Positions 4,562 to 32,954 of a stretch of DNA of 36,616 nucleotides are shown here, one piece after another; position 1 is the first letter of the stretch; the number at the start of each line of letters is the position of its first letter. Source of the DNA: Eggerthellaceae bacterium (GTDB lineage Bacteria; Actinomycetota; Coriobacteriia; Coriobacteriales; Eggerthellaceae). The stretch spans positions 1 to 36,616 of the forward strand of contig JAFYTB010000078.1 in NCBI GenBank assembly GCA_017559045.1. The letters run 5' to 3'. Under the pieces are notes generated by a model that had not been told where the DNA came from, did not search any database, and saw nothing but the letters and a program-made list of their open reading frames with translations. Position numbers and translations under genes: made by a program.

Positions 4562-7387
4562 ATGGGTAGCATGCGCGTACAGGAGCTAGCAAAAGAATTC
4601 AATATGTCGAGCAAGGATCTGCTCGATCGTATTCGTGATATGAAGATCCCGGCAAAGTCTCATGCAAGCATTCTCTCTGATGCTCATGTAGACGCCATTC
4701 GTAAGAACCTCGAGCCTGCTATTAAGCAGCGCGCAGGTCGGCTTGAGGCTGAGGAGGCAGCCGCTCTTGCTGCTGAGCAGGAGAAGGCTGAGCAGGAGAA
4801 GGCTGAGGCAGAGGCTGCACGTCGTGCTGCCGTTGAGAAGGAGCTCGCTGAGCGTGAGGCAGCTCGTGCCGCACGCGGTGGCGACCGTGTTGAGGCTGTG
4901 GCTGCTGAGCCCGAGGCTAAGCCTGCTGTTAAGAAGGCACCTGTGAGCAGTTCTTTCGAGAGCCTTGCTAACCAGATTGAGGCTGAGAAGCAGCGCGTTG
5001 AGCGTGAGCGCGCTGAGGCTCAGGCACGCAAGCGCGCCGAGAAGGCCGCTGCTGAGGTTGCTAAGAAGCAGGCTGTCGAAGAGGCTCTTCGCAGCAGGGG
5101 CGGCAAGAAGGCTGCTCCCGCAGCTCAGGCAGAGAAGCCTGCAGCAAACAAGGGCGCTGCTCCTGTGAGCACTGCTCGTAAGGCTTCCAACTTCAGCTCT
5201 CTGCTTTCCCAGATCGAGTCCGAGAAGCAGCGCATGGAAGCTCAGCGCAATGCTTCTGCTGCAGAGCCCGCACAGGCAAAGAAGGCTCCTGCTGGTCAGG
5301 GCGATGCACGTCCCGCAAAGAAGGGTCGTAATCAGCAGCAGGCTCAGCAGCCTCAGGCTCAGGGCGGCAAGAAGGGCAAGAAGAACGCTGTTCAGTATGT
5401 TCCCGAGCTCGAGATCCAGACTGAGGTCGAAGAGGATCGCTATGCTCAGATGGCCGTTCAGGCTGAGAAGCTTCAGCGCGACAAGGTTCTCGCAGAGGCT
5501 CGTGCTGCTGTTGCAGCTGCAAGCAATCACGAGGGCGAGGGTCGTCGTAAGAAGCGCAAGGAGAAGCGTGAGGCAGAGGCTCGCGAGCGTGCCGAGCTCG
5601 AGGCTATTGAGAAGGGTCTCGACCCGAGCCTCGTTCTCGATGACTCTGTTGTCGAGATTCCCCAGGGCGCTACGGTTGCTAAGTTCGCTGAGATTCTCGG
5701 CGTTCAGCCTAACGACGTCATCAAGCGTCTCTTCATGCTTGGCCAGATTATGACCCTGACTCAGTCTATGGCTGACGACATGATTGAGCTTATCGCTGAC
5801 GATATGGGCCGCAAGGTGCGCGTCGTTTCCCCCGAGGAAGAGTACGCTGTCGTCTACAACGACTCTGAGGACGATCTTAAGCCCCGTCCTCCGGTAGTTA
5901 CCGTCATGGGTCATGTTGACCACGGTAAGACTTCGCTTCTTGACGCTATTCGTCATACCGGCGTTGCTTCTACCGAGGCCGGCGGCATTACCCAGCATAT
6001 CGGTGCATCTGTCGTCAACATCGATGGCCGTCAGATCACCTTCATCGATACCCCTGGTCACGAGGCATTTACCGCAATGCGCGCTCGTGGTGCACAGGTT
6101 ACCGACGTTATCGTTCTCGTTGTCGCTGCTGACGACGGCGTTATGCCCCAGACCGTTGAGGCTATCAACCATGCTAAGGCTGCTAACGTGCCGATCGTCG
6201 TTGCGGTGAACAAGATCGATAAGGCTGGCGCTAACCCGGATCGTGTCCGTCAGGAGCTCGTCGAGCATGGCGTTATCCCCGAGGAGTGGGGCGGCCAGAA
6301 CATGTTCGTCGAGGTTTCCGCTAAGAAGAGGCTCTATATTGAGGACCTCATGGAGACCATCCTCCTGCAGGCTGACGTGCTCGAGCTTAAGGCTAACCCC
6401 GATGCGCTTGCCTCCGGCTTCGTTATCGAGTCTAACCTTGACAAGGGTCGTGGCCCTGTTGCCACCGTCCTCGTTCAGCGCGGCACCCTGAAGACCGGCG
6501 ACGTTCTGGTTGCTGGTACCTCTTATGGTCGCGTTCGTGCGCTCGTTAACCCGCGCGGTGAGCATGTCTCCACTGCTTATCCGGCAGATCCGGTTGAGAT
6601 CCTCGGCCTCTCCTCCGTCCCGACTGCAGGCGACGAGTTCCGCGTCTTCGAGGACGAGCGCGATGCTCGTAAGCTCGCAGAAGAGCGTGCGCTTCGTGCT
6701 CGCCTGGCAGAGCAGGAGACCAAGTCTCATATGAGCCTTGACGACCTGTTCAGCCGTATCGAGGAGGGCAAGCAGACCGACCTGAACCTCATCGTTAAGG
6801 CTGACGTTCAGGGCTCCATCGAGGCTCTGCGTGACGCCTTCAGCAAGATGGATCAGTCTGAGGTTCGCATCAACATCGTTCATGCTGCTGTTGGTGGCAT
6901 TACCGAGACTGACGTTACCCTCGCAGCCGCATCTGACGCTATCATCATCGGCTTCAATGTCCGCCCGACTGGTAAGTCCAAGCAGCAGGCAGAGAAGGAA
7001 AAGGTCGACCTTCGTCTGTATCGCATCATCTACCAGGCAATCGAGGAGATTAACGCCGCTCGTATCGGCCTTCTGTCTCCCGATATCGTCGAGGTTGACA
7101 CCGGTATCGCTGAGGTTCGTGAGACCTTTAAGGTTCCGAAGGTTGGCACCATTGCTGGTTGCTACATCATCGAGGGTGAGATTCACCGCGACGACAAGGT
7201 CCGCATCGTTCGCGATGGTAAGGTCATCTTCGAGGGCTCCATGGCATCCCTGCGTCGCTTCAAGGACGACGTCAAGCTTGTCAAGCAGGGTTACGAGTGT
7301 GGTATCGGCATCGAGAAGTTCCAGGACCTCAAGATTGGTGACACCATCGAGGGCTACACCATTAAGGAAATTGAAAGGACTGCCTAG
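4562..7387 (+). CDS. infB: Translation initiation factor IF-2
   Basis: 941 aa. The N-terminal region is low-complexity and rich in Ala/Glu/Lys. The GTPase core is present ([28 protein letters not shown]), followed by C-terminal IF-2 domains. aggag lies 7 nt before the ATG. Confidence 0.96.
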
Positions 7388-20311: not shown

Positions 20312-21268
20312 ATGCGTGTTGTATTTATGGGCACACCGAGTTTCTCGGCGTCCATCTTGGAAGACCTCATCGAGCATCATGAGGTAGTCGCGGTATACAC
20401 GCGACCCGATGCTGTTCGTGGTAGAGGCGGTTCGCTTGTTGCCTCTCCCGTCAAGCAGCTTGCGATGAGCGTTGGCATTCCCGTCCATACTCCTAAAACG
20501 CTTCGTTCGGATGAGGAATTCGCTGTACTTTCCGAATACAAGCCGGATGTTATTTGTGTTGCGGCTTACGGCATGCTTCTTCCAAAGCCTGTGCTTGATT
20601 TGCCGCAGTTCGGATGCCTGAATGTCCATGCGTCTCTCTTGCCTCGCTGGCGAGGTGCCGCTCCTATTGAGCGTGCGATTCTTTCTGGCGATGAGCAGGC
20701 TGGCGTCTGCATTATGCGCATGGAAGAGGGCATGGATACTGGTGACTATTGCATTTGCCGTGCAACTGATGTTGCCGATAAGTCTTCCGCCTATTTGACC
20801 GATGAGCTTTCTCTTCTCGGTTCCCGTGCATTGTTGACCGCGCTTGAGTTGGCAGCGGAGGATGCGTTGTCTTGGGTTCCGCAGGATGAAGCGTTCGTAA
20901 CGCTCGCTCCGAAGATTGCTAAGGGTGAACTTAATCTTGACCCCGATAAGTCTTCTGTGCAGAACGCTCGTTGCGTGCAGGCGTCCGGGGAAGCTCATCC
21001 TTCCCGCTGCTGCATCGGAGGAAAGACTGTTACGGTTCTTTTGGCCCGCCCGGCTTCTAATGAAGACCTTGATATTGAGGAAGTGCGTATTCTCCCGAAG
21101 GGTGAGGCTCGTATGATCCGCAAGAGGCTCTTCCTTGGTTGTGCGGAAGGCTGTTTGGAAATACTAGAAGTTAAGCCTGATGGTAAGAAGGCTATGGATG
21201 CAAAGGCTTTTGCTGCGGGTCTTCAGCAGTTGAAGTCGGGTCTTGAATGGAGTGGATCTAATGTCTGA
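20312..21268 (+). CDS. fmt: Methionyl-tRNA formyltransferase
   Basis: 318 aa with MRVVFMGTP and NVHASLLPRWRGAAPIERAI. Canonical def-fmt pairing with a 2-nt gap. Confidence 0.93.
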   Translation: MRVVFMGTPSFSASILEDLIEHHEVVAVYTRPDAVRGRGGSLVASPVKQLAMSVGIPVHTPKTLRSDEEFAVLSEYKPDVICVAAYGMLLPKPVLDLPQFGCLNVHASLLPRWRGAAPIERAILSGDEQAGVCIMRMEEGMDTGDYCICRATDVADKSSAYLTDELSLLGSRALLTALELAAEDALSWVPQDEAFVTLAPKIAKGELNLDPDKSSVQNARCVQASGEAHPSRCCIGGKTVTVLLARPASNEDLDIEEVRILPKGEARMIRKRLFLGCAEGCLEILEVKPDGKKAMDAKAFAAGLQQLKSGLEWSGSNV

Positions 21269-23543
21269 CAACAACGAATTCCGAGATAACTCCAATAGGG
21301 GAGGAAGACCCTCGGGCAATAAGCCTTCGGGTGGATCGGGTCGCGGTGGCTATCAGAAGGATCGTTCTTACGGTGACCGTAAGAACGGTGGTCGTTCTGG
21401 TGGCTTTGATAAGAAGCCTTATCGTAAGGATGGCGATCGTAAGTTCAATCGCGAAGACTCTGAAAAGAAGTTCGACCGCGGAGATCGTCCTCGCCGTTTT
21501 GACGACGACAAGAAGTTCGATAAGGGCGACCGTCCCCGTCGATTTGATGACGATAAGAAGTTCGACCGCGGAGACCGCCCGCGCCGCTTTGACAATGAGA
21601 AGAAGTTCGACCGCGAGGATCGTCCCCGTCGTTTCGATGACGAGAAGAAATCCGATCGTCCTTATGGTGATCGCAAAGGCGGCGGTCGTTCCTTCGATCG
21701 CAATAATGGCGATCGCAAGCCCTTCCGTAAGGACGGCGAGCGTAAGCCCTATCGCGAGGATGGGGATCGCAAGCCTTATCGCGATGGCGAGAAGCGCGAT
21801 TTCGCAGACAATCGTCGCGATGGCGGTGAAGGTGGCCGCAAGTTCGAGCGTCGAGATAACGAGAGAAGTTTCGAGCGCCGCGACTTCGGCGGTAAGTCTG
21901 AAGGCCGTGGCGGCGTAGGCCGTGATCGTAAATTCGATCATTATGATGGTGAGCGCAGGCCTCCTCGTCGCGAGGATTCGAAGGGCTTCGATCGTAAGGA
22001 CGGAGATCGCGGCTTCGATCGTAACCGCAACGAGCGTAAGTTTGAGGATGGAGAGAAGCGTTTCGAGCGCAGGGAGTCTTCTGCTCCTCGCGATGGCGAG
22101 CGTAGGGGAGGCGATCCTAAGTTCGCTTCCACTCCCAAGGATCAGGCTCGCAAGGGTTACCAGGGTCGCAAGGGCCGCGCCGATGGTCATTGCGCCTCTC
22201 CGGCTCGTCAGGCTGCTCTTACGGTCGTTTCCCAGCTTCGTCGTCGTGATGCCTTTGCCCAGGATCTTATCTCCAAATATATCGACAGATCGACTATGTC
22301 TCCCGAGGATCGCGCCTTTGCAACGAGGCTTGTTCTCGGCGTTGTCACTACTCGTGGCACCCTTGATGACATCCTCAATCGTTGCATGAACTCTCCCGAG
22401 GACGTCTCTCCCGAGGTTCGCGACGCCCTTCATATCAGCGCATACGAGATCATGTTCCTCGATAAGGAGGCGCATGCTGCCGTTGATCAGGGCGTAGAGC
22501 TTGTTCGCAGCGTTGCTCCTAAGGCCTCTGGAGTTGGCAATGCTGTTTTGAGGAAGCTTGTCACCATCAAGGACCAGTTCCCCTTCGGCGATCCGCAGCG
22601 TGAGCTTTCTGCATACGCACGCCAGCATGCTTTCCCCGAGTGGCTTGCAAAGGAGCTCGTTGAGACTTTCGGTCCTGACGGCGCTCATGCCTTCATGGAG
22701 GCTTGCAATGACCCCGCTCCGGTTTTTGTTGGCATTAACGCTGCGAAGGAAGGCGAGGAAGAGGTTTACCAGACCCTTGTCTCTGCAAAGGGCGAGCCGG
22801 AGTCTGCTACCGTTGACGGTCGTGTCATTCCTGGTTGCTTCAAGATCAATTCTGGTCAGCTCTTGACCGATGGTCGTATCAAGCGTCTTATCAATAATGG
22901 CAATATGCTTGTTTCCGACCTTGCATCTCAGGCTGTTGCAGATCTCGTTCTGCCCGAGCAGAAGCCTGCAAGCATGCTTGAGATTGGCGCAGGACGTGCT
23001 ACCAAGACCGTTCTCGTTCAGAGCAACAGCGTTCGTCGTTGGGGTAGCCAAATCGAGGAATACATCACCCTCGACAACCATGAGTTTAAGACCAAGCTGC
23101 TTCAGGAGCGCGCTGAGCAGTACGGCATTAACGTAACCGAGGCTGTGACGGGCGACGCAACCGATCTTGATGCAAGTCTTGAGGGTCGCATGTTCGATGT
23201 TATTTTCATCGATGCTCCTTGCACTGGCCTTGGTACTCTGCGTCGCCATCCCGAGATTCGTTGGCGCCTGAAGCCCGAGACCATTGATGAGTACTCTGAG
23301 CTCGGCCTCGCTATGCTTAAGCAGGCTGCTTCTCACGTGAATCCTGGTGGTACGCTGGTTTACGCAACCTGCACGGTTACGCGTAAGGAAAACTCCGGTG
23401 TTATCAAGGCGTTCCTTGAGAGCACCGAGGGTGCAGATTTCCGCCTCGTTCCTGTTGAGGGTAAGGCAGCGTTTGTTAGCGAGCTTACGCCTGGTGGTAG
23501 CGACGCTCATTTTGCTGCAAAGATGGTCAAGGTAGCCGAATAA
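21261..23543 (+). CDS. rsmB: 16S rRNA (cytosine-C5)-methyltransferase RsmB/Sun with a long N-terminal low-complexity extension
   Basis: The C-terminal 440 aa or so carry a NusB-like domain (ARQAALTVVSQLRRRDAFAQDLI) and a SAM-dependent m5C methyltransferase core (DAPCTGLGTLRRHPEIRW, YATCT). The first 310 aa or so are Arg/Asp/Lys/Gly/Phe-rich repeats. The ATG at 21261 overlaps the fmt stop. Confidence 0.85.
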   Translation: MSDNNEFRDNSNRGGRPSGNKPSGGSGRGGYQKDRSYGDRKNGGRSGGFDKKPYRKDGDRKFNREDSEKKFDRGDRPRRFDDDKKFDKGDRPRRFDDDKKFDRGDRPRRFDNEKKFDREDRPRRFDDEKKSDRPYGDRKGGGRSFDRNNGDRKPFRKDGERKPYREDGDRKPYRDGEKRDFADNRRDGGEGGRKFERRDNERSFERRDFGGKSEGRGGVGRDRKFDHYDGERRPPRREDSKGFDRKDGDRGFDRNRNERKFEDGEKRFERRESSAPRDGERRGGDPKFASTPKDQARKGYQGRKGRADGHCASPARQAALTVVSQLRRRDAFAQDLISKYIDRSTMSPEDRAFATRLVLGVVTTRGTLDDILNRCMNSPEDVSPEVRDALHISAYEIMFLDKEAHAAVDQGVELVRSVAPKASGVGNAVLRKLVTIKDQFPFGDPQRELSAYARQHAFPEWLAKELVETFGPDGAHAFMEACNDPAPVFVGINAAKEGEEEVYQTLVSAKGEPESATVDGRVIPGCFKINSGQLLTDGRIKRLINNGNMLVSDLASQAVADLVLPEQKPASMLEIGAGRATKTVLVQSNSVRRWGSQIEEYITLDNHEFKTKLLQERAEQYGINVTEAVTGDATDLDASLEGRMFDVIFIDAPCTGLGTLRRHPEIRWRLKPETIDEYSELGLAMLKQAASHVNPGGTLVYATCTVTRKENSGVIKAFLESTEGADFRLVPVEGKAAFVSELTPGGSDAHFAAKMVKVAE
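21465..21644 (+). repeat. In-frame tandem repeat, 4 x 45 nt, encoding KKFD(R/K)(G/E)DRPRRFD(D/N)(D/E)
   Basis: Copies start at 21465, 21510, 21555 and 21600, each beginning aagaagttcga. A degenerate fifth copy begins at 21645. Looser related repeats continue to about 22100. Confidence 0.85.
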
Positions 23544-23576: not shown

Positions 23577-23613
23577 AGTGAGGGTGCGTATATTCGCACC
23601 CTCACTTTGTTTG
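23577..23613 (+). terminator. Rho-independent terminator after rsmB
   Basis: Perfect 12-bp stem agtgagggtgcg (23577-23588) / cgcaccctcact (23595-23606), then ttgtttg. Confidence 0.8.
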
Positions 23614-23784
23614 TAGCCAGGTGCTAAACCACTCGGGAGTTTCTCGATTTCGATGCCGTATATGAATCTATAGATGAGGGTATTTAAAGTATTATTACGT
23701 GATTAACAAAATTGCTTGCCTTGATGCATCCGCATGAGCAAAGCTTTCGAATTTTAGCTATGTACGAAATCGGAGGTAGTACCA

Positions 23785-24369
23785 ATGGAGCCTAATATCA
23801 AAGAGGTTGCCGGTCGAATCCTTGCGTTGCGCGAAGACCTCGAGCTCACTATGCAGGAGATGGCCGATGCAACTGGCCTGACCGTTGCCGAGTATGCTGC
23901 GCAAGAGTCTGGCGAAAACGATCTGTCTTTTACCTTCCTGTACAGGTGCGCTAATCGTTTTGGCGTTGACGTCATCGAGCTCCTTACTGGCGAGAACCCG
24001 CATCTCACGGGATATTCTCTTACTCGTGCAGCTGATGGTCTCTCCATCAAGCGTCGCGCCGGTTTTGAGTATCTTCATAAGGCACCGCACTTCCGCCATA
24101 AGCTTGCTGAGCCTTTCCTCGTTACCGCGCCTTATCTTGAGGATGAACAGGATAAGCCCATTCACCTGTCGTCTCATAAGGGCCAGGAACTTGACTTTGT
24201 CATTTCTGGCAAGCTCCGTTTTTCCTACGAGAACCATGTTGAGGAGCTCGAGGCTGGCGACCTTGTCATGTATGACTCTGGTCGTGGCCACGGCATGATC
24301 GCTATCGGCGGCGAGCCTTGTAAGTTCCTCGCTATCGTTCTTCGCGACCCGGAAGAGAAGATTATCTAG
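23785..24369 (+). CDS. XRE-family HTH regulator with C-terminal cupin domain (copy 1)
   Basis: 194 aa. N-terminal HTH (RILALREDLELTMQEMADATGLTVAEYAAQESG), then a C-terminal cupin-like beta-barrel segment (HKGQELDFVISGKLRF..LEAGDLVMYDSGRGHGM). cggagg precedes the ATG. Confidence 0.8.
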   Translation: MEPNIKEVAGRILALREDLELTMQEMADATGLTVAEYAAQESGENDLSFTFLYRCANRFGVDVIELLTGENPHLTGYSLTRAADGLSIKRRAGFEYLHKAPHFRHKLAEPFLVTAPYLEDEQDKPIHLSSHKGQELDFVISGKLRFSYENHVEELEAGDLVMYDSGRGHGMIAIGGEPCKFLAIVLRDPEEKII

Positions 24370-24483
24370 GCGTTGTCGCTTGAGCCTGCGATTTTTTCGC
24401 ATGGAGCGGCTGCGCCTAAAACGATTTTCTGCCGTTATTCTGCGGTGCTCTGTTGTGCCGCCTTCTGTTCTGGGAAAGAGATT

Positions 24484-26247
24484 ATGAGAAACATCAATTT
24501 GCGCTTCGTTGAGGAGGCTTACAACGACAAGGGCCTCCTTACTGATTTCCGTGTAGTTGCACCCGAAACTTTTAACTTTGGCTACGACGTCGTTGACGAC
24601 ATCGCCGTCAATGATCCCGATCGCATGGCCATGGTTTGGTGCAATCCCGAAGGGGAGGAGCATCGCTTCACCTTTGCTGATATGAAGAAGTGGTCTGACA
24701 AGACTGCAAACTTCCTTTCCGCACAGGGAATCGGCAAGGGCGATTACGTTATGGTTATCCTCCGTCGCCATTATCAGTTCTGGTTTGTTGCTACCGCACT
24801 GGCGAAGCTCGGTGCTGTTATGGTCCCCGCAACCTTCATGCTGAAGGAGCATGACCTTGAGTACCGCCTCAATGGCGCTTCTATCAAATCTGTCATCTGC
24901 ACTTCTGCAGGCGATATTGCCGATGTTGTTGATAAGACCGTGGCGCATTGTCCGAGTGTTGAAAGCCTTATCCTCGTTAACTCTCCGGGTGCTGGCTTGA
25001 CTCAGCCTGATGAGGACGGCTCCTACCGATTTGAAGATGGTCAGCTTATTGGCCCTGCGCTGTCTGGCGAAGCTGGCATTTGCCTGCCCACCATCGAGCG
25101 AGAGGGATGGCTTGACTTCAACGCCTGCGTTCGTGAGGCATCTGAGCAATTTGAACGCAGGGAAACCAACATTGCCGATCCTATGCTCATGTATTTCAGC
25201 TCGGGTACGTCCGGCAATCCGAAGATGGTTCTTCATGATTCTCGTTATGCCGTCGCACATCTTATGACTGCCAAGCATTGGCACAATGTCCTTCCTGACG
25301 GCATTCACTTTACGATCGCTGACACTGGCTGGGGTAAGGCTGTTTGGGGTAAGTACTATGGCCAGTGGCTCATGGAGGCATGCGTTTTCACGTATGACTT
25401 CGACCGCTATCAGCCGACCGAGATCCTTTCCATGATCGGAAAGTATGGCATTACGACACTCTGCTGCCCGCCGACCATGTATCGACTCATGATGCAGGCC
25501 GATGTTGACTCTTTCGATCTCAGCTCTCTTGTTTATTGCACGACGGCTGGTGAGGCGCTTAACCCTGATCTCTTTGATTTCTGGAAAGAGCACACCGGTC
25601 TTACCATCTTTGAGGGCTTTGGACAGACCGAGACGCCGCTCACCATCGCAAATCTCACCAATTCCACCCCTAGACCTGGTTCGATGGGTAAGCCTGTTCC
25701 GATGTATGACGTTCAGGTGCTGCGTGAAGATGGCACGCGCTGCAACACCGGCGAGACCGGCGAGATTTGCATTGCCTGTGATCCCCATCCCGCTGGCATC
25801 ATGATGGAGTACTTCCGCAATCCTGAGAAAACTCAGGAGGCAATGCATGATGGTTGGTATCACACCGGCGACACCGCATGGCGTGATGAGGATGGCTATC
25901 TCTGGTATGTTGGCCGCAATGACGATGTCATCAAGTCGAGTGGCTACCGTATCGGCCCCTTTGAGATCGAGAGCGTTATGCTTGAGCATGATGCCGTTCG
26001 AGAGGTCGCTGTCACCGGCGTGCCCGATCCTGTTCGTGGAAAGGCCGTTAAGGCAACCGTAGTACTTGCTGATGGCTTTAAGCCCTCCGAGGAGCTGACG
26101 CGAGAGCTTCAGCGTTGGGTTAAGAACCAGACTGCTCCCTATAAGTATCCGCGCGTTGTCGAGTATGTTGACGCTTTGCCTCGTACGGTTAACGGAAAGA
26201 TCCGTCGTGTTGCGATTCGTCAGGCTGACGAAGCCGCCAATGCGTAA
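24484..26247 (+). CDS. AMP-forming acyl-CoA synthetase, medium-chain (ACSM/MACS-like) type, paralog 1
   Basis: 587 aa from the ATG at 24484 (gggaaagag SD). N-terminal FNFGYDVVDD, then YFSSGTSGNPK, TAGEALN, EGFGQTE, YHTGDTA, GRNDDVIKSSGYRIGPFEIES and PRTVNGKIRR. The upstream in-frame extension to 24373 is rejected. Confidence 0.86.
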   Translation: MRNINLRFVEEAYNDKGLLTDFRVVAPETFNFGYDVVDDIAVNDPDRMAMVWCNPEGEEHRFTFADMKKWSDKTANFLSAQGIGKGDYVMVILRRHYQFWFVATALAKLGAVMVPATFMLKEHDLEYRLNGASIKSVICTSAGDIADVVDKTVAHCPSVESLILVNSPGAGLTQPDEDGSYRFEDGQLIGPALSGEAGICLPTIEREGWLDFNACVREASEQFERRETNIADPMLMYFSSGTSGNPKMVLHDSRYAVAHLMTAKHWHNVLPDGIHFTIADTGWGKAVWGKYYGQWLMEACVFTYDFDRYQPTEILSMIGKYGITTLCCPPTMYRLMMQADVDSFDLSSLVYCTTAGEALNPDLFDFWKEHTGLTIFEGFGQTETPLTIANLTNSTPRPGSMGKPVPMYDVQVLREDGTRCNTGETGEICIACDPHPAGIMMEYFRNPEKTQEAMHDGWYHTGDTAWRDEDGYLWYVGRNDDVIKSSGYRIGPFEIESVMLEHDAVREVAVTGVPDPVRGKAVKATVVLADGFKPSEELTRELQRWVKNQTAPYKYPRVVEYVDALPRTVNGKIRRVAIRQADEAANA

Positions 26248-26268
26248 TTAAGCGAAGTGCGAACTTAG

Positions 26269-26997
26269 ATGAATCTTCCCGAATTGCTTTCCCCTGTAAC
26301 CGTAATTTGCGGCCATTATGGGGTTGGAAAAACGAATTTCGCCTTGAATCTTGCTTTGGATGCATCTAAGGCAGGGTTCAAGGTCACCCTTATCGATCTC
26401 GATATAGTCAACCCCTATTTCAGGTCGAGTGAATATCGAGTTCTTCTTGATGATTCGGGCGTTTCGCTGGTATCCCCGGTGTTTGCCCAAGCTGGAACCA
26501 GCTTGGATGTCCCTTCTCTGACGGGCGCCATTATTCCTGCAATAAATCGTGCGTACTTCGATCATGCCAAGGGTTCGTCCCTTGAGCGTGTCATCATCGA
26601 TGTAGGCGGTGACGATGCGGGTGCTACGGCTCTTGCTCGTTACACGCGTGAGATTTCTGCCGGACCGCATGATTTGCTCTACGTCGTGAACAAATTCAGG
26701 AACCTAACCCAGAATCCGGAGGATGCTGTTGAGGTTCTTCAAGAGATTCAAGAACGTAGCGGACTGAGGGCTACTGGCTTGGTCAGCAATGCTCACCTCA
26801 AGTCTGAAACCTCTCTATCCGAGGTGTTTGAGGGTGCTCGCTTCGCTTACGTCATTAGTGATATGACGAGTATTGAAGCTAAGTGCATTACTCTGCCTAT
26901 TTCGCTCGTTCAGCAGGTAGGGGAGGATGGCGAGGCTATCGTGCCCGTAGATAAAAGGTATCCTGTGCGGATACTCGTAAAATCCCCCTGGGAGTAA
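26269..26997 (+). CDS. Orphan P-loop NTPase, SIMIBI (MinD/ParA/CooC-like) fold
   Basis: 242 aa. Walker A GHYGVGKT sits immediately after a beta-strand (VTVIC), followed by KVTLIDLD and a Walker B-like VIIDVGGDD. There is no CxxC motif and no MinD-type KGG signature lysine. Confidence 0.65.
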   Translation: MNLPELLSPVTVICGHYGVGKTNFALNLALDASKAGFKVTLIDLDIVNPYFRSSEYRVLLDDSGVSLVSPVFAQAGTSLDVPSLTGAIIPAINRAYFDHAKGSSLERVIIDVGGDDAGATALARYTREISAGPHDLLYVVNKFRNLTQNPEDAVEVLQEIQERSGLRATGLVSNAHLKSETSLSEVFEGARFAYVISDMTSIEAKCITLPISLVQQVGEDGEAIVPVDKRYPVRILVKSPWE

Positions 26998-27046
26998 TTT
27001 CCCTGCTTTTAGCAGGTTGGATTAGATTTCAAGAAAGAGGTGCTCT

Positions 27047-27253
27047 ATGGCCAGAATCGCTGTCGATGAGGGCTTCTGCAAGGGCTGCGGCCTTTGCGTT
27101 GACGCCTGCCCTCGAAGCATCATAGAACTCGATCCTGATCGCATCACGCCGAAGGGATACCATCCCGCGCACTGCATCGACGACTCCCGTTGCACGGGCT
27201 GCGCCAACTGCGCTCTGATGTGCCCCGACGTCGCCATCACGGTTTGGAGGTAG
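27047..27253 (+). CDS. 2x[4Fe-4S] ferredoxin-type delta subunit of 2-oxoacid:ferredoxin oxidoreductase
   Basis: 68 aa with two cluster motifs, CKGCGLCVDACP and CTGCANCALMCP. The stop lies 2 nt before the alpha subunit ATG. Confidence 0.87.
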   Translation: MARIAVDEGFCKGCGLCVDACPRSIIELDPDRITPKGYHPAHCIDDSRCTGCANCALMCPDVAITVWR

Positions 27254-27255
27254 AC

Positions 27256-28326
27256 ATGGCAGAGAAAGTTCTCATGAAGGGCAACGAGGCCCTCGCTGAG
27301 GCCGCGCTGCGCGCCGGCTGCCGCTTCTTCTTCGGCTATCCCATCACGCCGCAGACCGAGGTCGCGGCGTACATGTCCAAGCGCCTTCCGCAGGTCGGCG
27401 GCACCTACCTGCAGGCCGAGTCCGAGGTCGCGGCCATCAACATGGTCTACGGCGCCTCCGCCGCGGGTGCGCGCGTCATGACGTCCTCCTCCTCCCCGGG
27501 CATCTCCCTGAAGAGCGAGGGCATCTCCTACATGGCCGGCGCCGACCTCCCCGGCGTCATCATCAACATCCAGCGCGGCGGCCCGGGCCTCGGCGGCATC
27601 CAGCCGTCCCAGTCCGACTACTGGCAGGCCACCCGCGCAACCGGCCACGGCGACTTCCAGATCTTCGTCTTCGCGCCCTCCACGGTCCAGGAGATGGCCG
27701 ACTGCGCCTACGAGGCGTTCGACATCGCCGACAGGTACCGCATCCCCGTCATGATCCTCGGAGACGGCCTCCTCGGCCAGATGATGGAGCCCGTCGCCCT
27801 GCCCGAGCAGCGCGATCTCTCCAGCCTCCCCGAGAAGCCCTGGGCGACCAGCGGCCACAGGGGCGAGAGGGCGCACAACGTCGCCAACTCCCTCTACCTC
27901 ACCGCAGAAGAGCTCGAGCGCCTCAACATCGAGCGCTACGAGCGCTACCAGGCCATCAAGGACGCCGAGCAGCGCTGCGAGGAGTACCTCGTCGACGACG
28001 CCGACATCGTCATCGTCGCGTTCGGCGCCTCGGCCCGCGTCGCGCGCAGCGCCGTCAACGCCGCCCGCGAGCAGGGCATCAGGGCCGGCCTTCTCCGCCC
28101 CGTCACCCTGTGGCCCTTCCCCGAGTCCGCCGTCTCCGCCGCGGCCGACTCCGCGAAGGCGCTCCTTGCCGTGGAGATGAACATGGGCCAGATGGTCGAC
28201 GACGTGCGCCTCGTCGCGAACGGCCGCGTCCCCGTGGAGTTCTTCGGCCGCACCGGCGGCGTCATCCCCACGCCCGCCGAGGTGCTCGCGAAGATCGTCG
28301 AGATCAATGAGAGGAGCGGTGAGTAG
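27256..28326 (+). CDS. 2-oxoacid:ferredoxin oxidoreductase alpha subunit (VorB/PorA-like)
   Basis: 356 aa from the ATG at 27256. LMKGNEALAEAALRAGCRFFFGYPITPQTE is typical of OFOR alpha subunits. About 72% G+C in sampled lines. Confidence 0.88.
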   Translation: MAEKVLMKGNEALAEAALRAGCRFFFGYPITPQTEVAAYMSKRLPQVGGTYLQAESEVAAINMVYGASAAGARVMTSSSSPGISLKSEGISYMAGADLPGVIINIQRGGPGLGGIQPSQSDYWQATRATGHGDFQIFVFAPSTVQEMADCAYEAFDIADRYRIPVMILGDGLLGQMMEPVALPEQRDLSSLPEKPWATSGHRGERAHNVANSLYLTAEELERLNIERYERYQAIKDAEQRCEEYLVDDADIVIVAFGASARVARSAVNAAREQGIRAGLLRPVTLWPFPESAVSAAADSAKALLAVEMNMGQMVDDVRLVANGRVPVEFFGRTGGVIPTPAEVLAKIVEINERSGE

Positions 28327-28327
28327 C

Positions 28328-29164
28328 ATGAGCGAAGCAACCGCCGAGAAGCTCGTCTACGAGCGCCCCCACGCGCTTCTGCCCGTGGTCACCAACTACT
28401 GCCCCGGATGCCCGCACGGCATCGTCATCCGCCTCGTGGCCGAGGTCCTCGACGAGCTCGGGGTCGAGGGCGAAGCCGTCGGCGTCGCGCCCGTCGGCTG
28501 CGCCGTCATGGCCTACGACTTCTTCGGATGCGACATGATCGAGGCCGCGCACGGCCGCGCCCCGGCTGTCGCCACCGGCGTGAAGCGCGTCCATCCCGGC
28601 AACGTGGTCTTCGCCTACCAGGGCGACGGCGACCTCGCCTCCATCGGCATGGCCGAGACCGTCCACGCCGCCACCCGCGGCGAGAACATCACCGTCATCT
28701 TCATCAACAACGCGATCTACGGCATGACGGGCGGCCAGATGGCCCCCACCTCGCTTCCGAACCAGGTCACCCAGACCTCGCCCTACGGCCGCGACGTCGA
28801 CACCGCCGGCTACCCGGTGCGCGTCGCCGAGCTCCTCTCGAGCCTCGACGGCGTCGCCTACATCGAGCGCGTCACCGTCGACAAGCCCGCAAGCGTCCGC
28901 AAGGCCAAGAAGGCCATCAGGAAGGCCTTCGAGACCCAGATCGCCGGCCGCGGCTACTCCATGGTCGAGGTGGTCTCCACCTGCCCGACCAACTGGGGCA
29001 TGACCCCGCAGGACTCCTTCGAGTGGATGCGCGAGAACATGCTTCCCTATTATCCGCTCGGCGTTAAGAAGGACGTCGTGGCCGACGGCTTCGAGAACGC
29101 GGCGGAGGCCGCCCTCGCCCGCGCGGCCGGCTGCCCCATCGCGCAGCCCAAGGGCGCAGAGTAG
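28328..29164 (+). CDS. 2-oxoacid:ferredoxin oxidoreductase beta subunit (thiamine-diphosphate binding)
   Basis: 278 aa from the ATG at 28328. CPGCPHG, TPP motif GDGDL...NNAIYGMTGGQ, and a 1-nt gap after the alpha stop. Confidence 0.88.
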   Translation: MSEATAEKLVYERPHALLPVVTNYCPGCPHGIVIRLVAEVLDELGVEGEAVGVAPVGCAVMAYDFFGCDMIEAAHGRAPAVATGVKRVHPGNVVFAYQGDGDLASIGMAETVHAATRGENITVIFINNAIYGMTGGQMAPTSLPNQVTQTSPYGRDVDTAGYPVRVAELLSSLDGVAYIERVTVDKPASVRKAKKAIRKAFETQIAGRGYSMVEVVSTCPTNWGMTPQDSFEWMRENMLPYYPLGVKKDVVADGFENAAEAALARAAGCPIAQPKGAE

Positions 29165-29179
29165 GAAAGGGGATACAAC

Positions 29180-29716
29180 ATGAGCAAGGATATGCAGGCG
29201 GTGTTCGCCGGCTTCGGCGGCCAGGGCACCCTCTTCTCCGGCAAGGTCGTCGCCTACGCGGGCCTCATCGAGGGCCGCGAGGTCTCGTGGTTCCCGTCCT
29301 ACGGCCCCGAGATGCGCGGCGGCACCGCCAACTGCTCCGTCACCGTCTCGGACTCCCTCATCGGCAGCCCCCTGGTGACCGAGCCCGACGCGGTAATCGC
29401 CATGAACCAGCCCTCGTTCGACAAGTTCCTCCCCATGGTCAAGAAGGGCGGCATCGTCGTCGCCGACACCTCCATGGTCGCGGACCTCGCCCAGCGCGAG
29501 GGCGTACGCGTCATCGGCATCCCCGCGACCAAGATCGCGGAGGAGGCCGGTCTCAAGGGTCTTGCCAACATCGTGCTTCTCGGACGCCTCTTCGCGGAGG
29601 AGCCCTTCTGCTCTCCCGAGAGCCTCGATGCCGCTCTTGTTAAGTGCATTCCGCCGAAAAAGGCGGCTATGCTCGACAAGAACCGTGTTGCCGTCAAGCT
29701 TGGAATGGAGTCGTAA
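29180..29716 (+). CDS. 2-oxoacid:ferredoxin oxidoreductase gamma subunit
   Basis: 178 aa. FAGFGGQGTLFSGKV...SYGPEMRGGTANCSV is typical of OFOR gamma domains. Confidence 0.88.
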   Translation: MSKDMQAVFAGFGGQGTLFSGKVVAYAGLIEGREVSWFPSYGPEMRGGTANCSVTVSDSLIGSPLVTEPDAVIAMNQPSFDKFLPMVKKGGIVVADTSMVADLAQREGVRVIGIPATKIAEEAGLKGLANIVLLGRLFAEEPFCSPESLDAALVKCIPPKKAAMLDKNRVAVKLGMES

Positions 29717-30264
29717 TGGACGCTATGAGGGAAATCGGCCTCCGTATTGAGGGCCTCCGTGAGGCTTGCGACGTAACCCAGGAGGAAATGGCACGCGAGC
29801 TTAGCGTTGATCTTGAAACGTATCAGAGGTGGGAGCAGACGGGTGCGGATGTGCCTATCTCCGCTATCTACCATATGGCTAAGACCTTTGGCGTTGAGTT
29901 TACTGAGATCCTCACGGGTACTGCCGCGAAGCTTGACACGTATCAGGTAGTCCGTGCTGGTGAGGGTAAGGAAGTTGATCGTTACCCTGGTTATTACTAC
30001 GAGGATCTCGCCTGGCGTTATCAGGGAAAGATCATGCAGCCTTTGCTTGTTGTCCTTGATCCTTCCGATGAGCCTGCGAAGCTTGTTTCCCATACGGGTC
30101 AAGAGTTCAACGTGGTAATTGAGGGTACTGTTATCGTTCAGTTTGAGGACAAGGAATTTGCCCTGAATCCTGGCGATAGCATTTACTTCAACCCCATGTA
30201 TCCGCATGGTCAGCGCTGTGGCGGCAACGCTACTGCGAAATTCATCACCATCATTGCTGAATAA
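29716..30264 (+). CDS. XRE-family HTH regulator with C-terminal cupin domain (copy 2)
   Basis: 182 aa from the ATG at 29716, which forms a TAATG overlap with the gamma stop. HTH (RIEGLREACDVTQEEMARELSVDLETYQRWEQTG) plus cupin-like segment (HTGQEFNVVIEGTVIV..LNPGDSIYFNPMYPHG). Same architecture as copy 1 but visibly divergent. Confidence 0.78.
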   Translation: MDAMREIGLRIEGLREACDVTQEEMARELSVDLETYQRWEQTGADVPISAIYHMAKTFGVEFTEILTGTAAKLDTYQVVRAGEGKEVDRYPGYYYEDLAWRYQGKIMQPLLVVLDPSDEPAKLVSHTGQEFNVVIEGTVIVQFEDKEFALNPGDSIYFNPMYPHGQRCGGNATAKFITIIAE

Positions 30265-30283
30265 CGAAAGACATTAATCATCC

Positions 30284-31957
30284 ATGGATCACATTCTGAA
30301 AAAGTACTGCCCTCGTATTGAATTCGACTCTTACGAAGATTTCTTTGAGAATTTCTCCATTGAAGTACCTGAGGATTTTAACTTCGGCTATGACGTCGTT
30401 GACGAGTGGGCGAGGGTGGAGCCTGAGAAGCGTGCGCTGGTTTGGTGCGACGATGCCGGCAACGAGCGCATCTTCGCGTTCTCGGATGTTTCCCGTATTT
30501 CCAATAAGGTAGCCAATGCCTTCTACAAGCGCGGTATTCGCAAGGGCGACGTTGTCATGTGCATCCTTCGTCGCCGTTGGGAGTATTGGATGATTGCGTC
30601 TGCCTTGTGCAAGATTGGTGCAACCGTCATTCCCGCATCTTTGCAGCTCACTAAGAAGGACATTGTCTATCGAGCAAATGGCGCAAACGTCAAGATGATG
30701 GTTTGCGTAAGCGATCCTTACGTTCTTGAGCAGGTCGAGCTTGCAAGGCCCGATGCCCCGTCTATCGCTGACATCGTCATCGTCGACGGCGAGCGTGAGG
30801 GCTGGCTGACCTTTGATGATCTGATCGCTGATGAGCCTGAGACCTGGACCCGCCCCGAGGGTTCCGAGCGTACGTGCTCTAGCGATACTATGCTCATTTA
30901 TTTCACCAGCGGCACTACGGGCAACGCTAAGGCTGTTTGCCATAATTTTGCCCATCCGTTGGGTCATATCCTTACCGCTCGTTATTGGCAGCAGGTTAAG
31001 GAAAATTGCCTTCATATGAGCGTTACGGACTCCGGTTGGGCAAAGTTCGGCTGGGGAAAGATCTACGGCCAGTGGATTTGCGGTGCCACCATCTTTGCGT
31101 ATGACATGGAGAAGTTCGTTCCCCTGAAGCTTCTTCAGAAGATTCAGGATTACAAGCTCACCACTTTCTGCGCGCCTCCGACCATGTATCGCTTCATGCT
31201 TCAGGAAGACGTTTCGCAGTTTGATCTCTCTAGCGTTCAGAATTTCGCCACTGCTGGTGAGCCCTTGAATGCTGAAGTTACGCTTGTATGGGAGCGCTTG
31301 ACCGGTAAGAAGATTCGTGAGGGTTTTGGTCAGACCGAGGGCCCTGTTCTTCTTGCAACCTTTGAGTGGGTTGAACCGCGACCCGGCTCCATGGGCAAGC
31401 CTTCTCCGCTTCTCAACATTAAGCTTCTTGATGATGACGGCGCTCAGGTTCCTGATGGCGAAGAGGGTGCAATTTGCGTTACCGGCCTCAAGGAGGCTTA
31501 CCCGCCTGGCCTTTTCGTGGGTTATTACCAGGATGAGGAGCGCACGCGCGAGGCGGTTGGTGGAGAGTATTACAACCTTCACGACATGGCCTGGCGCGAC
31601 TCTGACGGTTATTGCTTCTTCGTTGGCCGCAACGATGACGTTATTAAGTGCTCTGGCTACCGCATCGGCCCCTTTGAGGTCGAGAGCGCTCTGATCGAGC
31701 ATCCTGCTGTTGTCGAATGCGCTGTTACCGCAGCACCCGATCCCATTCGTGGCATGGTGGTTAAGGCTACCGTTGTTCTTGCGAGAGGCTACGAGCCTTC
31801 CGATGAGCTTATCAAGGAGCTGCAGACTCACGTCAAGAAGACCACGGCACCTTATAAGTATCCTCGTATTGTCGAGTTTGTCGACGAGCTGCCTAAGACC
31901 ATCGGCGGCAAGATTAAGCGCAAGCTGATTCGTACGCAGGACGGAATTAAGGATTAG
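30284..31957 (+). CDS. AMP-forming acyl-CoA synthetase, medium-chain (ACSM/MACS-like) type, paralog 2
   Basis: 557 aa with the same motif set as paralog 1: FNFGYDVVDE, YFTSGTTGNAK, TAGEPLN, EGFGQTE, GRNDDVIKCSGYRIGPFEVES and PKTIGGKIKR. It lacks a roughly 30-aa insertion present in paralog 1. Confidence 0.86.
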   Translation: MDHILKKYCPRIEFDSYEDFFENFSIEVPEDFNFGYDVVDEWARVEPEKRALVWCDDAGNERIFAFSDVSRISNKVANAFYKRGIRKGDVVMCILRRRWEYWMIASALCKIGATVIPASLQLTKKDIVYRANGANVKMMVCVSDPYVLEQVELARPDAPSIADIVIVDGEREGWLTFDDLIADEPETWTRPEGSERTCSSDTMLIYFTSGTTGNAKAVCHNFAHPLGHILTARYWQQVKENCLHMSVTDSGWAKFGWGKIYGQWICGATIFAYDMEKFVPLKLLQKIQDYKLTTFCAPPTMYRFMLQEDVSQFDLSSVQNFATAGEPLNAEVTLVWERLTGKKIREGFGQTEGPVLLATFEWVEPRPGSMGKPSPLLNIKLLDDDGAQVPDGEEGAICVTGLKEAYPPGLFVGYYQDEERTREAVGGEYYNLHDMAWRDSDGYCFFVGRNDDVIKCSGYRIGPFEVESALIEHPAVVECAVTAAPDPIRGMVVKATVVLARGYEPSDELIKELQTHVKKTTAPYKYPRIVEFVDELPKTIGGKIKRKLIRTQDGIKD

Positions 31958-32002
31958 CCAATAGGTATCCGCTCTGCTATTTAGGGACTATAAACATTTG
32001 AT

Positions 32003-32035
32003 AAACGGGATGCATTTGCGTCCCGTTTATGTTTG
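32003..32035 (+). terminator. Rho-independent terminator closing the ligase/OFOR operon
   Basis: 11-bp stem aaacgggatgc (32003-32013) / gcgtcccgttt (32018-32028) with one G-U pair, attt loop, then atgtttg. Confidence 0.7.
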
Positions 32036-32096: not shown

Positions 32097-32954
32097 ATGT
32101 TTCAGTTCAATCGTAAGTATATGTTCATGGCAACCGGCGCAGGCCTGGTTGTCACCGCTGTTGTGCAAACCATCTACTCGATGATTACTCACCAGGCCAT
32201 GTCTGCAACCCTGCCTGGGTTGGTTCTGTCTCTTGGTTTGTTCGTTGTTGTTACTGCTTTTGCGGCCGTGCACTTCTCCAAGAGGGCCACTGAGGATGCG
32301 GATGCCTTCATCTCGCTGTATGACGATCTGTGCGACCCGCAGTCCTTTGTAGATCAGGGGAAGCTGCTTGCAAGTGGCATGACCGTCCCTTATACGGCTT
32401 CTAGCTCGTGGTTCATGTCTTATTACGCGCAAGCTTTGCTCGATGTTGGCGTCACCCAGAATGCTCGTGAAATCGAGCGTGCTATGTATGACAGCATTGC
32501 GGAAACTAGCAAGACCGAGGAGCAAGCGCAGATCATCACCAATTTGGTCCCGCTGTCGCTGAAGGTGCTTGGCCCCGAAGAGACCCTTCCCATTATCGAA
32601 ACGGGTATTGACCTGCTTAAACAGGGTCCTCAGCTGAAGCTTGCGCCTGTGATTGCCTACCTTGAGAATCAGCGCATTATCGTTGATGCTCGCATTTTTG
32701 GTAAAGCCGATAAGTTGCTTCCTTTCTATGCCAGCGTTAGAGCCGATAGCAGTGTGCCTTTACGCGTTCGCGTAGAGCATACGTGGGATGAGGCGCGTTT
32801 GCATTACCAGTTAGGAAATGTTCCTGCAGAAAAGGAATGCCTTGAGTACGTGACACGTTTTGGCAATAGACTTGCGCTTGTTAAGGCCGCCAGAGAGCGC
32901 CTTGCGGTGATCCATTCCTCTTCTGAAGCCGTATCTGCTCAAGAATCCGTCTAG
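32097..32954 (+). CDS. Hypothetical protein with two N-terminal TM helices and a helical soluble domain
   Basis: 285-aa ORF with agaaggg before the ATG. No motif I recognise. It is bounded by the operon terminator upstream and the pyr leader downstream. Confidence 0.5.
   Translation: MFQFNRKYMFMATGAGLVVTAVVQTIYSMITHQAMSATLPGLVLSLGLFVVVTAFAAVHFSKRATEDADAFISLYDDLCDPQSFVDQGKLLASGMTVPYTASSSWFMSYYAQALLDVGVTQNAREIERAMYDSIAETSKTEEQAQIITNLVPLSLKVLGPEETLPIIETGIDLLKQGPQLKLAPVIAYLENQRIIVDARIFGKADKLLPFYASVRADSSVPLRVRVEHTWDEARLHYQLGNVPAEKECLEYVTRFGNRLALVKAARERLAVIHSSSEAVSAQESV

Follow-up and report, generated by a model that had tools for sequence, protein, structure and literature searches.

A 36,616-nucleotide stretch of the genome of an Eggerthellaceae bacterium (contig JAFYTB010000078.1 of assembly GCA_017559045.1, analysed at its full length and called the window here) carries nine same-strand genes. 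They encode, in order, a regulator (reg1), an acyl-CoA ligase (lig1), a P-loop ATPase (below, the NTPase), the delta, alpha, beta and gamma subunits of a 2-oxoacid:ferredoxin oxidoreductase (OFOR), a second regulator (reg2) and a second ligase (lig2), with a strong hairpin at either end. The joint explanation that we favour, with moderate confidence, is a chromosomal, vertically inherited operon for the salvage of isobutyrate, 2-methylbutyrate and isovalerate, in which a GC-saturated island over the OFOR genes arose by homologous recombination. In the proposed pathway, the two Macs-type AMP-forming ligases would convert exogenous branched acids to acyl-CoA, the four-subunit OFOR would reductively carboxylate the acyl-CoAs to branched 2-oxoacids, a direction deduced from related clusters, and a transaminase encoded elsewhere in the genome would yield Val, Ile or Leu. 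Each ligase would be accompanied by its own XRE-cupin regulator, probably a local ligand-sensing repressor, and the SIMIBI-class NTPase would act as a dedicated OFOR accessory, possibly in assembly or activation. A comparable conversion of 2-methylbutyrate to Ile by reductive carboxylation has been proposed for M. ruminantium (PMC2812497).

The direction of the pathway is indicated by homologous clusters in other genomes. A one-genome-per-species scan with the alpha subunit yielded 80 loci, which were annotated by tblastn with the nine window proteins; their neighbouring open reading frames (ORFs) were clustered, and the cluster representatives were scanned. The transaminase IlvE (467 bits, against an equivalog cut-off of 307) immediately adjoins the NTPase-OFOR core in 17-18 of the 80 loci, and 12 of the loci contain a LeuA-like gene, which often heads the array in the same orientation. 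T-box leaders were detected at the Rfam gathering level in 16 places in these clusters, and further full-length matches scored 67-88 bits, below that threshold. An nhmmer profile built from the leaders identified 36 sites, all in Clostridial loci. Specifier codons were read from the cmscan and profile alignments, at the position that we take to be correct from the consensus T-box architecture of the glyQS leader, and all 34 readable specifiers were Ile, Val or Leu codons. Eight loci contain tandem regulator-ligase units, the first behind an AUC (Ile) T-box and the second behind a GUA or GUC (Val) T-box; single units follow either Ile or Val T-boxes, and CUC (Leu) T-boxes precede arrays composed of a leuA-like gene, a third ligase, ilvE, the NTPase, the OFOR, a regulator and a ligase. 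T-boxes switch genes on when the cognate tRNA is uncharged, so the clusters appear to be built for branched-chain amino-acid supply, with one ligase per amino acid, and the Clostridial modules are predicted to be switched on by branched-chain amino-acid starvation. Such control fits the order acid, acyl-CoA, 2-oxoacid, amino acid; it accords poorly with a purely oxidative OFOR and does not accord with the breakdown of amino acids. The sequence-only reading had proposed acid salvage in the synthase direction, an idea that gains support from the T-boxes, ilvE and leuA-like genes of the homologous clusters and from the MacsMa-like ligases described below, for the window itself by homology. Nothing points to the aryl acids that it had listed among the substrates, the readable specifiers all being Ile, Val or Leu. 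In two loci, a second, partial T-box-like match follows the Leu T-box 5′ of the leuA-like gene (L078, 3691-3897 and 4054-4154; L091, 2876-3092 and 3283-3392), and these pairs may be tandem leaders.

Both ligases closely resemble a characterised enzyme. Searches against the PDB matched lig1 and lig2 to 3ETC, the MacsMa ligase of Methanosarcina acetivorans, at 50% identity (E 2e-190) and 53% identity (E 3.5e-195), respectively. MacsMa favours 2-methylbutyrate and has Trp259 in an alternative acyl pocket, with a Gly replacing the acetate-limiting Trp of Acs (PMC10455477). Alignment to MacsMa revealed that the Trp259 equivalent and the Gly of the EGFGQTE motif are retained in both lig1 and lig2, and at 50-53% identity to this enzyme both are predicted to activate branched short-chain acids. 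The top NCBIfam family of both ligases was MbcS (NF047394), with 453 and 455 bits; the Staphylococcus aureus MbcS activates exogenous 2-methylbutyrate and isobutyrate and serves to prime branched fatty acids (PMC10026030). The two ligases are 44-47% identical to each other and the two regulators 31%, in agreement with the earlier description of the regulator-ligase pairs as divergent paralogs, and by these comparisons the pairs are judged genuine and old paralogs. The ligases differ in motif III, for which the usual ANL form is Y-x-[STA]-G-D: lig1 has the canonical YHTGD, as do all Clostridial copies, whereas lig2 has the deviant YYNLHD at 31568-31585 (YNLHD for YHTGD). YNLHD is kept in Eggerthellaceae orthologs of lig2 (L021, L023, L026, L100 and L106 among them) and in most other Coriobacteriia orthologs examined; four lig2 orthologs carry other variants (ETKD, NLND, NLGD and FYNLHD). 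lig1 also contains an insertion of ~37 aa relative to both MacsMa and lig2 (residues ~170-207, window ~24990-25110). In one same-species contig (L011), a 1-nt deletion near window position 31550 (GATGAGGAGCGC to GATGAGAGCGC) cuts lig2 to 469 aa, which may reflect strain variation or an assembly error; an apparent truncation of lig2 in L012 was a scaffold N-gap artefact.

The Clostridial ligases form two clades that follow the Ile or Val identity of the preceding T-box leader, with a single exception. In that locus (L068; leaders at 3456-3695 and 6321-6559), both ligases group with the Ile T-box clade, although the second leader reads GUA (Val); a recent duplication followed by a specifier switch may account for it. 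A third, distant ligase (PRK12583-like, ~25% identical to lig1) lies between the leuA-like gene and ilvE in L087 (6403-7980) and ~13 other Clostridial loci, and this ligase of the Leu T-box arrays is a candidate isovalerate ligase.

The four OFOR subunits were recognised from a POR_N/PFOR_II alpha, a thiamine pyrophosphate (TPP)-binding beta, a POR-type gamma and a delta with two 4Fe-4S motifs, the delta translation containing CxxCxxCxxxCP twice. The alpha subunit passes the NCBIfam model of the bacterial VorB subfamily (NF005507, PRK07119) with 547.2 bits against a cut-off of 399, and among solved structures it lies closest to a Pyrococcus 2-keto-acid enzyme and to 2-oxoglutarate synthases. 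A preference for branched-chain 2-oxoacids and acyl-CoAs is suggested, by analogy, from the adjacency of IlvE and the Ile, Val and Leu T-boxes in the homologous clusters.

Several results weigh against carrying this function and direction over to the window. Both ligases reach about half of the MbcS equivalog cut-off (850), and they fall outside the Clostridial Ile and Val clades, so that transfer of specificity from those clades fails. The alpha subunit scores 92.9 bits against the Pyrococcus-type VOR alpha model NF006232 (cut-off 646) and is not orthologous to it; the label VOR thus needs support from context. No T-box was detected in the window (no Rfam gathering-level or nhmmer match) or in any Coriobacteriia locus (nhmmer), and neither ilvE nor leuA is present in the window. 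Since the window has no T-box, its direction rests on homology, at 60-65% identity for alpha and 32-40% for the NTPase. Finally, OFORs are reversible, and a two-way role is possible. One earlier label is narrowed by these results: the classification of the OFOR as VOR-type holds for the VorB subfamily name and the genomic context, and fails as orthology to the characterised archaeal enzyme.

The same evidence was weighed for other functions. The main functional rival, which we regard as improbable, is lipid supply: the OFOR would run oxidatively from 2-oxoacid to acyl-CoA, the ligases would feed the same pool, and the products would prime branched-chain fatty acids, as Bkd and MbcS do in S. 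aureus. Eggerthellaceae have anteiso and iso fatty acids, the reversibility of OFORs allows this direction, and a FakA gene lies upstream of the NTPase in one locus (L045). The best NCBIfam match of both ligases, a primer of branched fatty acids (PMC10026030), also agrees with it. A T-box, however, would then induce the use of amino-acid-derived 2-oxoacids just when Ile, Val and Leu are scarce, and the arrays also contain a leuA-like biosynthetic gene in the same orientation; lipid supply would account for the ligases but not for the co-induction of the OFOR. Little supports the two remaining readings. Substrates of another kind, either aryl acids (phenylacetate, indoleacetate) or straight-chain or dicarboxylic 2-oxoacids, would agree with the nearest solved alpha structures, with the position of the window ligases outside the Ile and Val T-box clades and with the unusual motif III of lig2, VorB being merely a subfamily name. 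This possibility appears still more improbable than lipid supply, given that every readable T-box specifier is for Ile, Val or Leu, that the embedded transaminase is IlvE, and that both ligases keep the Trp259 pocket of a 2-methylbutyrate enzyme. In a catabolic scheme, branched-chain amino acids would be fermented through the OFOR to acyl-CoA, and the ligases would run in reverse (acyl-CoA + AMP + PPi to acid + ATP). Amino-acid fermenters use OFORs of this type in the oxidative direction, and in Syntrophus an AMP-forming acetyl-CoA synthetase is reported to run in reverse. The scheme is nevertheless very improbable: no result of the analysis supports it for the window, the T-box, ilvE and leuA context indicates biosynthesis, and no ptb/buk, ADP-forming synthetase or CoA-transferase was found among the recurrent neighbour families of the 80-locus survey.

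The cluster itself is widespread. The module is not peculiar to the window, as the survey revealed a conserved cluster that spans several phyla. The full nine-gene order is also present in Paraeggerthella hominis, Adlercreutzia equolifaciens, A. muris and several Eggerthellaceae metagenome-assembled genomes (MAGs); in A. equolifaciens, the cluster likewise lies downstream of rsmB, and two syntenic sister species, L100 and L106, retain the whole def-fmt-rsmB ... pyr neighbourhood. The operon is probably ancestral in Eggerthellaceae, because the gene order is shared and the neighbourhood kept. The NTPase gene is located directly upstream of delta in 64 of the 74 loci with enough upstream DNA, including loci of Clostridia, Spirochaetales and a Verrucomicrobia MAG. 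Long flanks were available for 48 loci, of which 11 contain two regulator-ligase pairs, 13 a single pair and 24 no pair; a regulator and its own ligase always move as one unit in the surveyed loci. The gene order is beyond chance, since it recurs in many genomes. In seven Clostridial loci (L043, L044, L046, L048, L050, L062 and L085), an RseC/MucC-family gene (~136 aa) lies just 5′ of the NTPase-OFOR core.

The AlphaFold2 model of the NTPase has a pLDDT (predicted local distance difference test) score of 86, and the top Foldseek matches were FtsY/Ffh, the GTPases of the signal recognition particle (SRP), together with FlhF and ATPase-type HypB (template-modelling score ~0.5, E ~1e-6). Because the modelled fold resembles SRP GTPases, FlhF and HypB, the protein is placed in the SIMIBI class of P-loop NTPases. 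Its conserved motifs are GHxGxGKT, DxDxxNPYxR, DxGGD and NxxR; the P-loop reads CGHYGVGKT, and GHxGxGKT is conserved in 61 homologs. The family counts ~1950 representatives at E < 1e-10 and bears the NCBI name "ParA family protein". A deviant-Walker-A ATPase of the MinD/ParA/Mrp type was rejected, as the signature lysine of KGGxGK[ST] is missing from the P-loop. The Fe-S carrier or electron-transfer SIMIBI proteins (Mrp/NBP35, CooC, NifH) do not match either: the conserved Cys ligands are absent, the homolog alignment containing no column with at least 30% Cys and no invariant Cys, so that a metal-cluster role like that of Mrp, CooC or NifH is unlikely. The co-occurrence points to a dedicated accessory of this OFOR type, with a possible role in assembly or activation, and makes the NTPase a candidate new accessory factor for 2-oxoacid:ferredoxin oxidoreductases.

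Both regulators have the XRE-cupin architecture, with an N-terminal helix-turn-helix (HTH) and a C-terminal cupin domain assigned by Pfam, and each is probably a local ligand-sensing repressor. reg1 shares 95% identity with its counterpart in the sister species L100 and 40-49% with the regulators found ahead of ligases in Clostridia; a PDB sequence search with reg1 returned no match. In upstream alignments of relatives, a TAnnAT-like hexamer (AGTACAATA / AGTATTATT) recurs 5′ of reg1, and nothing was found beyond this -10-like hexamer and a ribosome-binding site (RBS). From these sequence signals we only infer a promoter in 23614-23784. An operator search returned just one inverted repeat, located within reg1.

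The second feature of the operon, overlooked in the sequence-only reading, is a block of ~2.4 kb over the OFOR genes in which the GC content at third codon positions (GC3) is nearly saturated. A two-change-point fit (log-likelihood gain 217) gave a GC3 of 0.953 for the 786 codons inside and of 0.579 outside, with boundary support at 27142-27282 on the left and 29536-29557 on the right; the left boundary thus falls within delta or at its end, and the right one within gamma. At the left edge, GC3 climbs from ~0.5-0.8 to 0.93 within delta, and at the right edge, ~56 codons before the gamma stop, it drops from at least 0.93 to 0.6-0.8 after ~29540. By gene, GC3 is 0.75 for delta, 0.96 for alpha, 0.95 for beta and 0.88 for gamma, compared with 0.50-0.61 for the other five operon genes and 0.49-0.65 for every other gene in the window; the overall GC content is ~69% in the OFOR genes and ~51-54% elsewhere in the window. 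In every relative examined, including six members of the same genus-level clade (L100/L102, L103, L104, L105, L106), the GC3 of the OFOR genes equals that of their flanks. The codon usage of the island correlates with that of high-GC rumen Coriobacteriales (r 0.94 and 0.90) and less so with that of its own flanks (r 0.46). A 435-aa antisense ORF (27022-28329, minus strand) and other long ORFs overlap the island; they look like spurious ORFs typical of high-GC DNA, and an antisense ORF of this kind was picked by a gene caller in L009. A reverse pattern was observed in L103 (343-1071), where the NTPase gene has a GC3 of 0.59 against ~0.77 for the neighbouring ligase, delta and alpha genes, which hints at further mosaicism of the operon within the clade.

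The island could in principle be a chimeric metagenome assembly, as the window comes from a metagenome-assembled genome and same-species contigs from most samples end inside 27600-29430, with few assemblies crossing it. These breaks suggest that high-GC DNA was poorly covered or that the assembly graph was tangled there. Contigs of nine samples, produced by at least three assembly pipelines, cross both junctions at 99.4-100% identity and with sample-specific single-nucleotide polymorphisms (SNPs); L001 and L011, from different samples, overlap across the entire beta gene, and alleles of GC3 0.55 and 0.95 would share almost no k-mers to mislead an assembler. We therefore rejected chimeric assembly, which is extremely improbable, on the reproduction of the junctions across nine samples.

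The island most likely arose when homologous recombination brought in DNA from a member of the same genus-level clade that is unsampled and far richer in GC, an event that would have left delta and gamma as chimeric genes. SNP density within the species is 0.13% in the island against 0.50% outside it, roughly fourfold lower by a count that is pseudo-replicated, and this lower density suggests a recent arrival. A number of observations count against import. Protein identity to L100 is 88-93% for the island and 89-95% for the flanks, outgroup distance ratios are equal for island and flanking proteins, and L105 is the nearest relative for both the native NTPase and alpha; no protein-phylogeny discordance between island and flanks was found. 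The small excess of synonymous codon identity to L100 is equal within the island and beyond it; synonymous-site divergence is near saturation, and the comparison is hence uninformative. The donor hunt, which comprised exact-protein look-ups (alpha, gamma, reg2 and the NTPase), the members of 90% clusters and the contigs of the closest alphas, found no donor among ~15 billion proteins; the best non-self alpha was 92% identical with a GC3 of 0.77. The candidates P0002, P0003, P0004, P0006, P0136 and P0008 were congeners with uniform GC3 of 0.66-0.8, and none was the donor. As the island proteins are as distant as the flanks, any donor would need to be very closely related and yet differ greatly in GC content.

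These same observations, namely the phylogenetic congruence of island and flanks with L105 nearest on both sides, the equal synonymous excess and the empty donor hunt, favour an origin in place, in which the native OFOR genes were recoded either by repeated gene conversion with congeners, biased towards GC, or by selection acting on synonymous sites (for expression or mRNA stability). We consider this unlikely. The boundaries are sharp and lie inside genes, every part of the island has a GC3 of 0.93-1.0 whereas six sister species show uniform values, and the lower within-species diversity suggests recent arrival. Nor is any bacterial process known to us by which a 2.4-kb segment would approach complete GC3 against an opposite drift of the genome around it. 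Translational selection as the sole cause was rejected, as no other window gene exceeds a GC3 of 0.65 and the sister species have no OFOR excess. By either route, the island offers a clean natural example in which an operon had its catalytic core exchanged or recoded in place while the proteins remained phylogenetically "native", and it bears on the interplay of recombination and base composition among close relatives of very different GC.

A bolder joint explanation, which we put forward as doubtful, would make the NTPase an obligate partner of this bacterial OFOR class, for example with nucleotide hydrolysis coupled to assembly or activation for the carboxylating direction. The NTPase and the ligases under T-box and XRE-cupin control would together provide the long-sought genetic explanation of why rumen and gut anaerobes require branched acids. 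The GC island, in turn, would reflect synonymous recoding in place or an allelic sweep within the genus and would not be ordinary foreign DNA.

The features of the operon are listed in Table 1. All nine genes were confirmed by Pfam and NCBIfam matches on the forward strand, at the positions first described. The lig1 ORF opens at a TTG at 24373, and its start is most likely the ATG at 24484; with this start, the intergenic gaps are, in order, 114, 21, 49, 2, 1 and 15 nt, a 1-nt overlap and 19 nt. The overlap, between the gamma stop and the reg2 start, is the TAATG at 29714-29718, and the spacing agrees with the tight packing of 0-114 nt described earlier. The left hairpin (23577-23606) folds at -23.9 kcal/mol (z -6.2) and was found by a simple terminator consensus scan; the right one folds at -21 kcal/mol (z -4.4) and was not picked up by that scan. 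The earlier claim of strong terminators at both ends thus stands as far as folding is concerned, and for the terminator consensus it stands on the left side alone. With gaps of at most 114 nt and strong hairpins only at the ends, the nine genes are predicted to form one operon, transcribed as a single unit. The 114-nt spacer between reg1 and lig1 contains a weak hairpin (24442-24461) followed by a T-rich tract, the folding of which is not significant (z -1.5).

Table 1. Coordinates of the operon, its boundaries and the GC-saturated island in the window
Feature	Position	Strand	Description
Left terminator-like hairpin and T-run	23577..23613	+	Ends upstream rsmB and bounds operon; 12 pairs, 8 of them G-C
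Promoter / 5′ leader	23614..23784	+	Candidate -10 TATTAT at 23690-23695; RBS GGAGGTAGT; no T-box
reg1	23785..24369	+	XRE-type HTH and cupin regulator, 194 aa; Pfam HTH_3 7e-8, Cupin_2 4e-12
lig1	24484..26247	+	Putative AMP-forming acyl-CoA ligase, Macs/MbcS type, 587 aa; Pfam AMP-binding and AMP-binding_C
P-loop NTPase	26269..26997	+	Cys-less, putative SIMIBI class, 242 aa; Pfam CbiA 3e-8, CbiA/ParA matches
OFOR delta	27047..27253	+	68 aa; Pfam Fer4, Fer4_7; two 4Fe-4S motifs
OFOR alpha	27256..28326	+	356 aa; Pfam POR_N 4e-54, PFOR_II 9e-26
OFOR beta	28328..29164	+	278 aa, TPP-binding; Pfam TPP_enzyme_C 4e-22
OFOR gamma	29180..29716	+	178 aa; Pfam POR 2.5e-37
reg2	29716..30264	+	Second XRE-cupin regulator, 182 aa; Cupin_2 2e-13, HTH_31, HTH_3
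lig2	30284..31957	+	Second putative Macs-type AMP-forming ligase, 557 aa; AMP-binding domains
Right hairpin and T-rich tail	32001..32035	+	Bounds operon; stem ~32001-32030
GC3-saturated island	27166..29548	.	3′ part of delta, alpha, beta and most of gamma; ~2.4 kb

The neighbours of the operon are housekeeping genes, with infB, truB, ribF, dnaG, def, fmt and rsmB upstream and pyr genes downstream. The rsmB gene (21243-23543) encodes a long N-terminal extension of charged tandem repeats at 21465-21784, built from 45/90-nt and 27-nt units (DRPRRFDD-KKFD-like); RsmB with a shorter extension is found in L100 (694 aa), and the extension is absent from L106 (485 aa). On the 3′ side of the operon, 32097-32954 encodes a protein of 285 aa that has two hydrophobic helices at its N terminus and lacks a Pfam match, and proteins of similar size occupy this place in the sister species L100 (272 aa) and L106 (274 aa).

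That anaerobes of the rumen and gut need or use isobutyrate, isovalerate and 2-methylbutyrate has been known since the 1960s, and branched-acid feeding is of practical dairy interest. The conserved cluster of ligases, NTPase, OFOR and often ilvE offers a concrete, testable locus for this route, with Adlercreutzia and Paraeggerthella as cultured carriers. A literature search of limited coverage found the individual enzymes and the physiology, and no description of a defined gene cluster for the route, of the present cluster, or of its T-box control or NTPase partner.

Among known systems, the VOR of Pyrococcus, Thermococcus and Methanothermobacter consists of alpha, beta, gamma and delta subunits with TPP and three 4Fe-4S clusters. 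The window OFOR shares its four subunits and its predicted reversible chemistry, 2-oxoacid to and from acyl-CoA and CO2; unlike the archaeal enzyme, its alpha belongs to the bacterial PRK07119 VorB subfamily, of which no member with measured substrates was found in our searches, and it travels with a SIMIBI-class NTPase and AMP-forming ligases. The ligases are like MacsMa in full-length identity and in the retained Trp259 pocket and Gly, and unlike it in the lig1 insertion, the YNLHD of lig2 and their operonic association with an OFOR and a private regulator. MbcS, their best NCBIfam family, differs in that it feeds lipid synthesis and that the window ligases score about half of its cut-off; no oxidoreductase partner of MbcS was found in the literature consulted on it. 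The T-box ilv-leu operons of Bacillota resemble the Clostridial homologs in their full-length Leu, Ile and Val leaders, whereas the genes controlled here are those of salvage (ligase and OFOR) and not of de novo synthesis, and the window and other Coriobacteriia have no T-box. Reductive carboxylation of branched and aryl acids is a classical trait of rumen bacteria and methanogens; in Methanococcus, IOR and an aryl-CoA ligase take part in it. The proposed pathway follows the same order as this classical rumen and methanogen route, from acid through acyl-CoA and 2-oxoacid to amino acid, but with its steps packaged in one conserved bacterial cluster together with XRE-cupin regulators (T-boxes in Clostridia) and an NTPase. 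It would thus represent a known pathway in a new form, that of a conserved bacterial gene cluster, here with a GC-saturated OFOR core.

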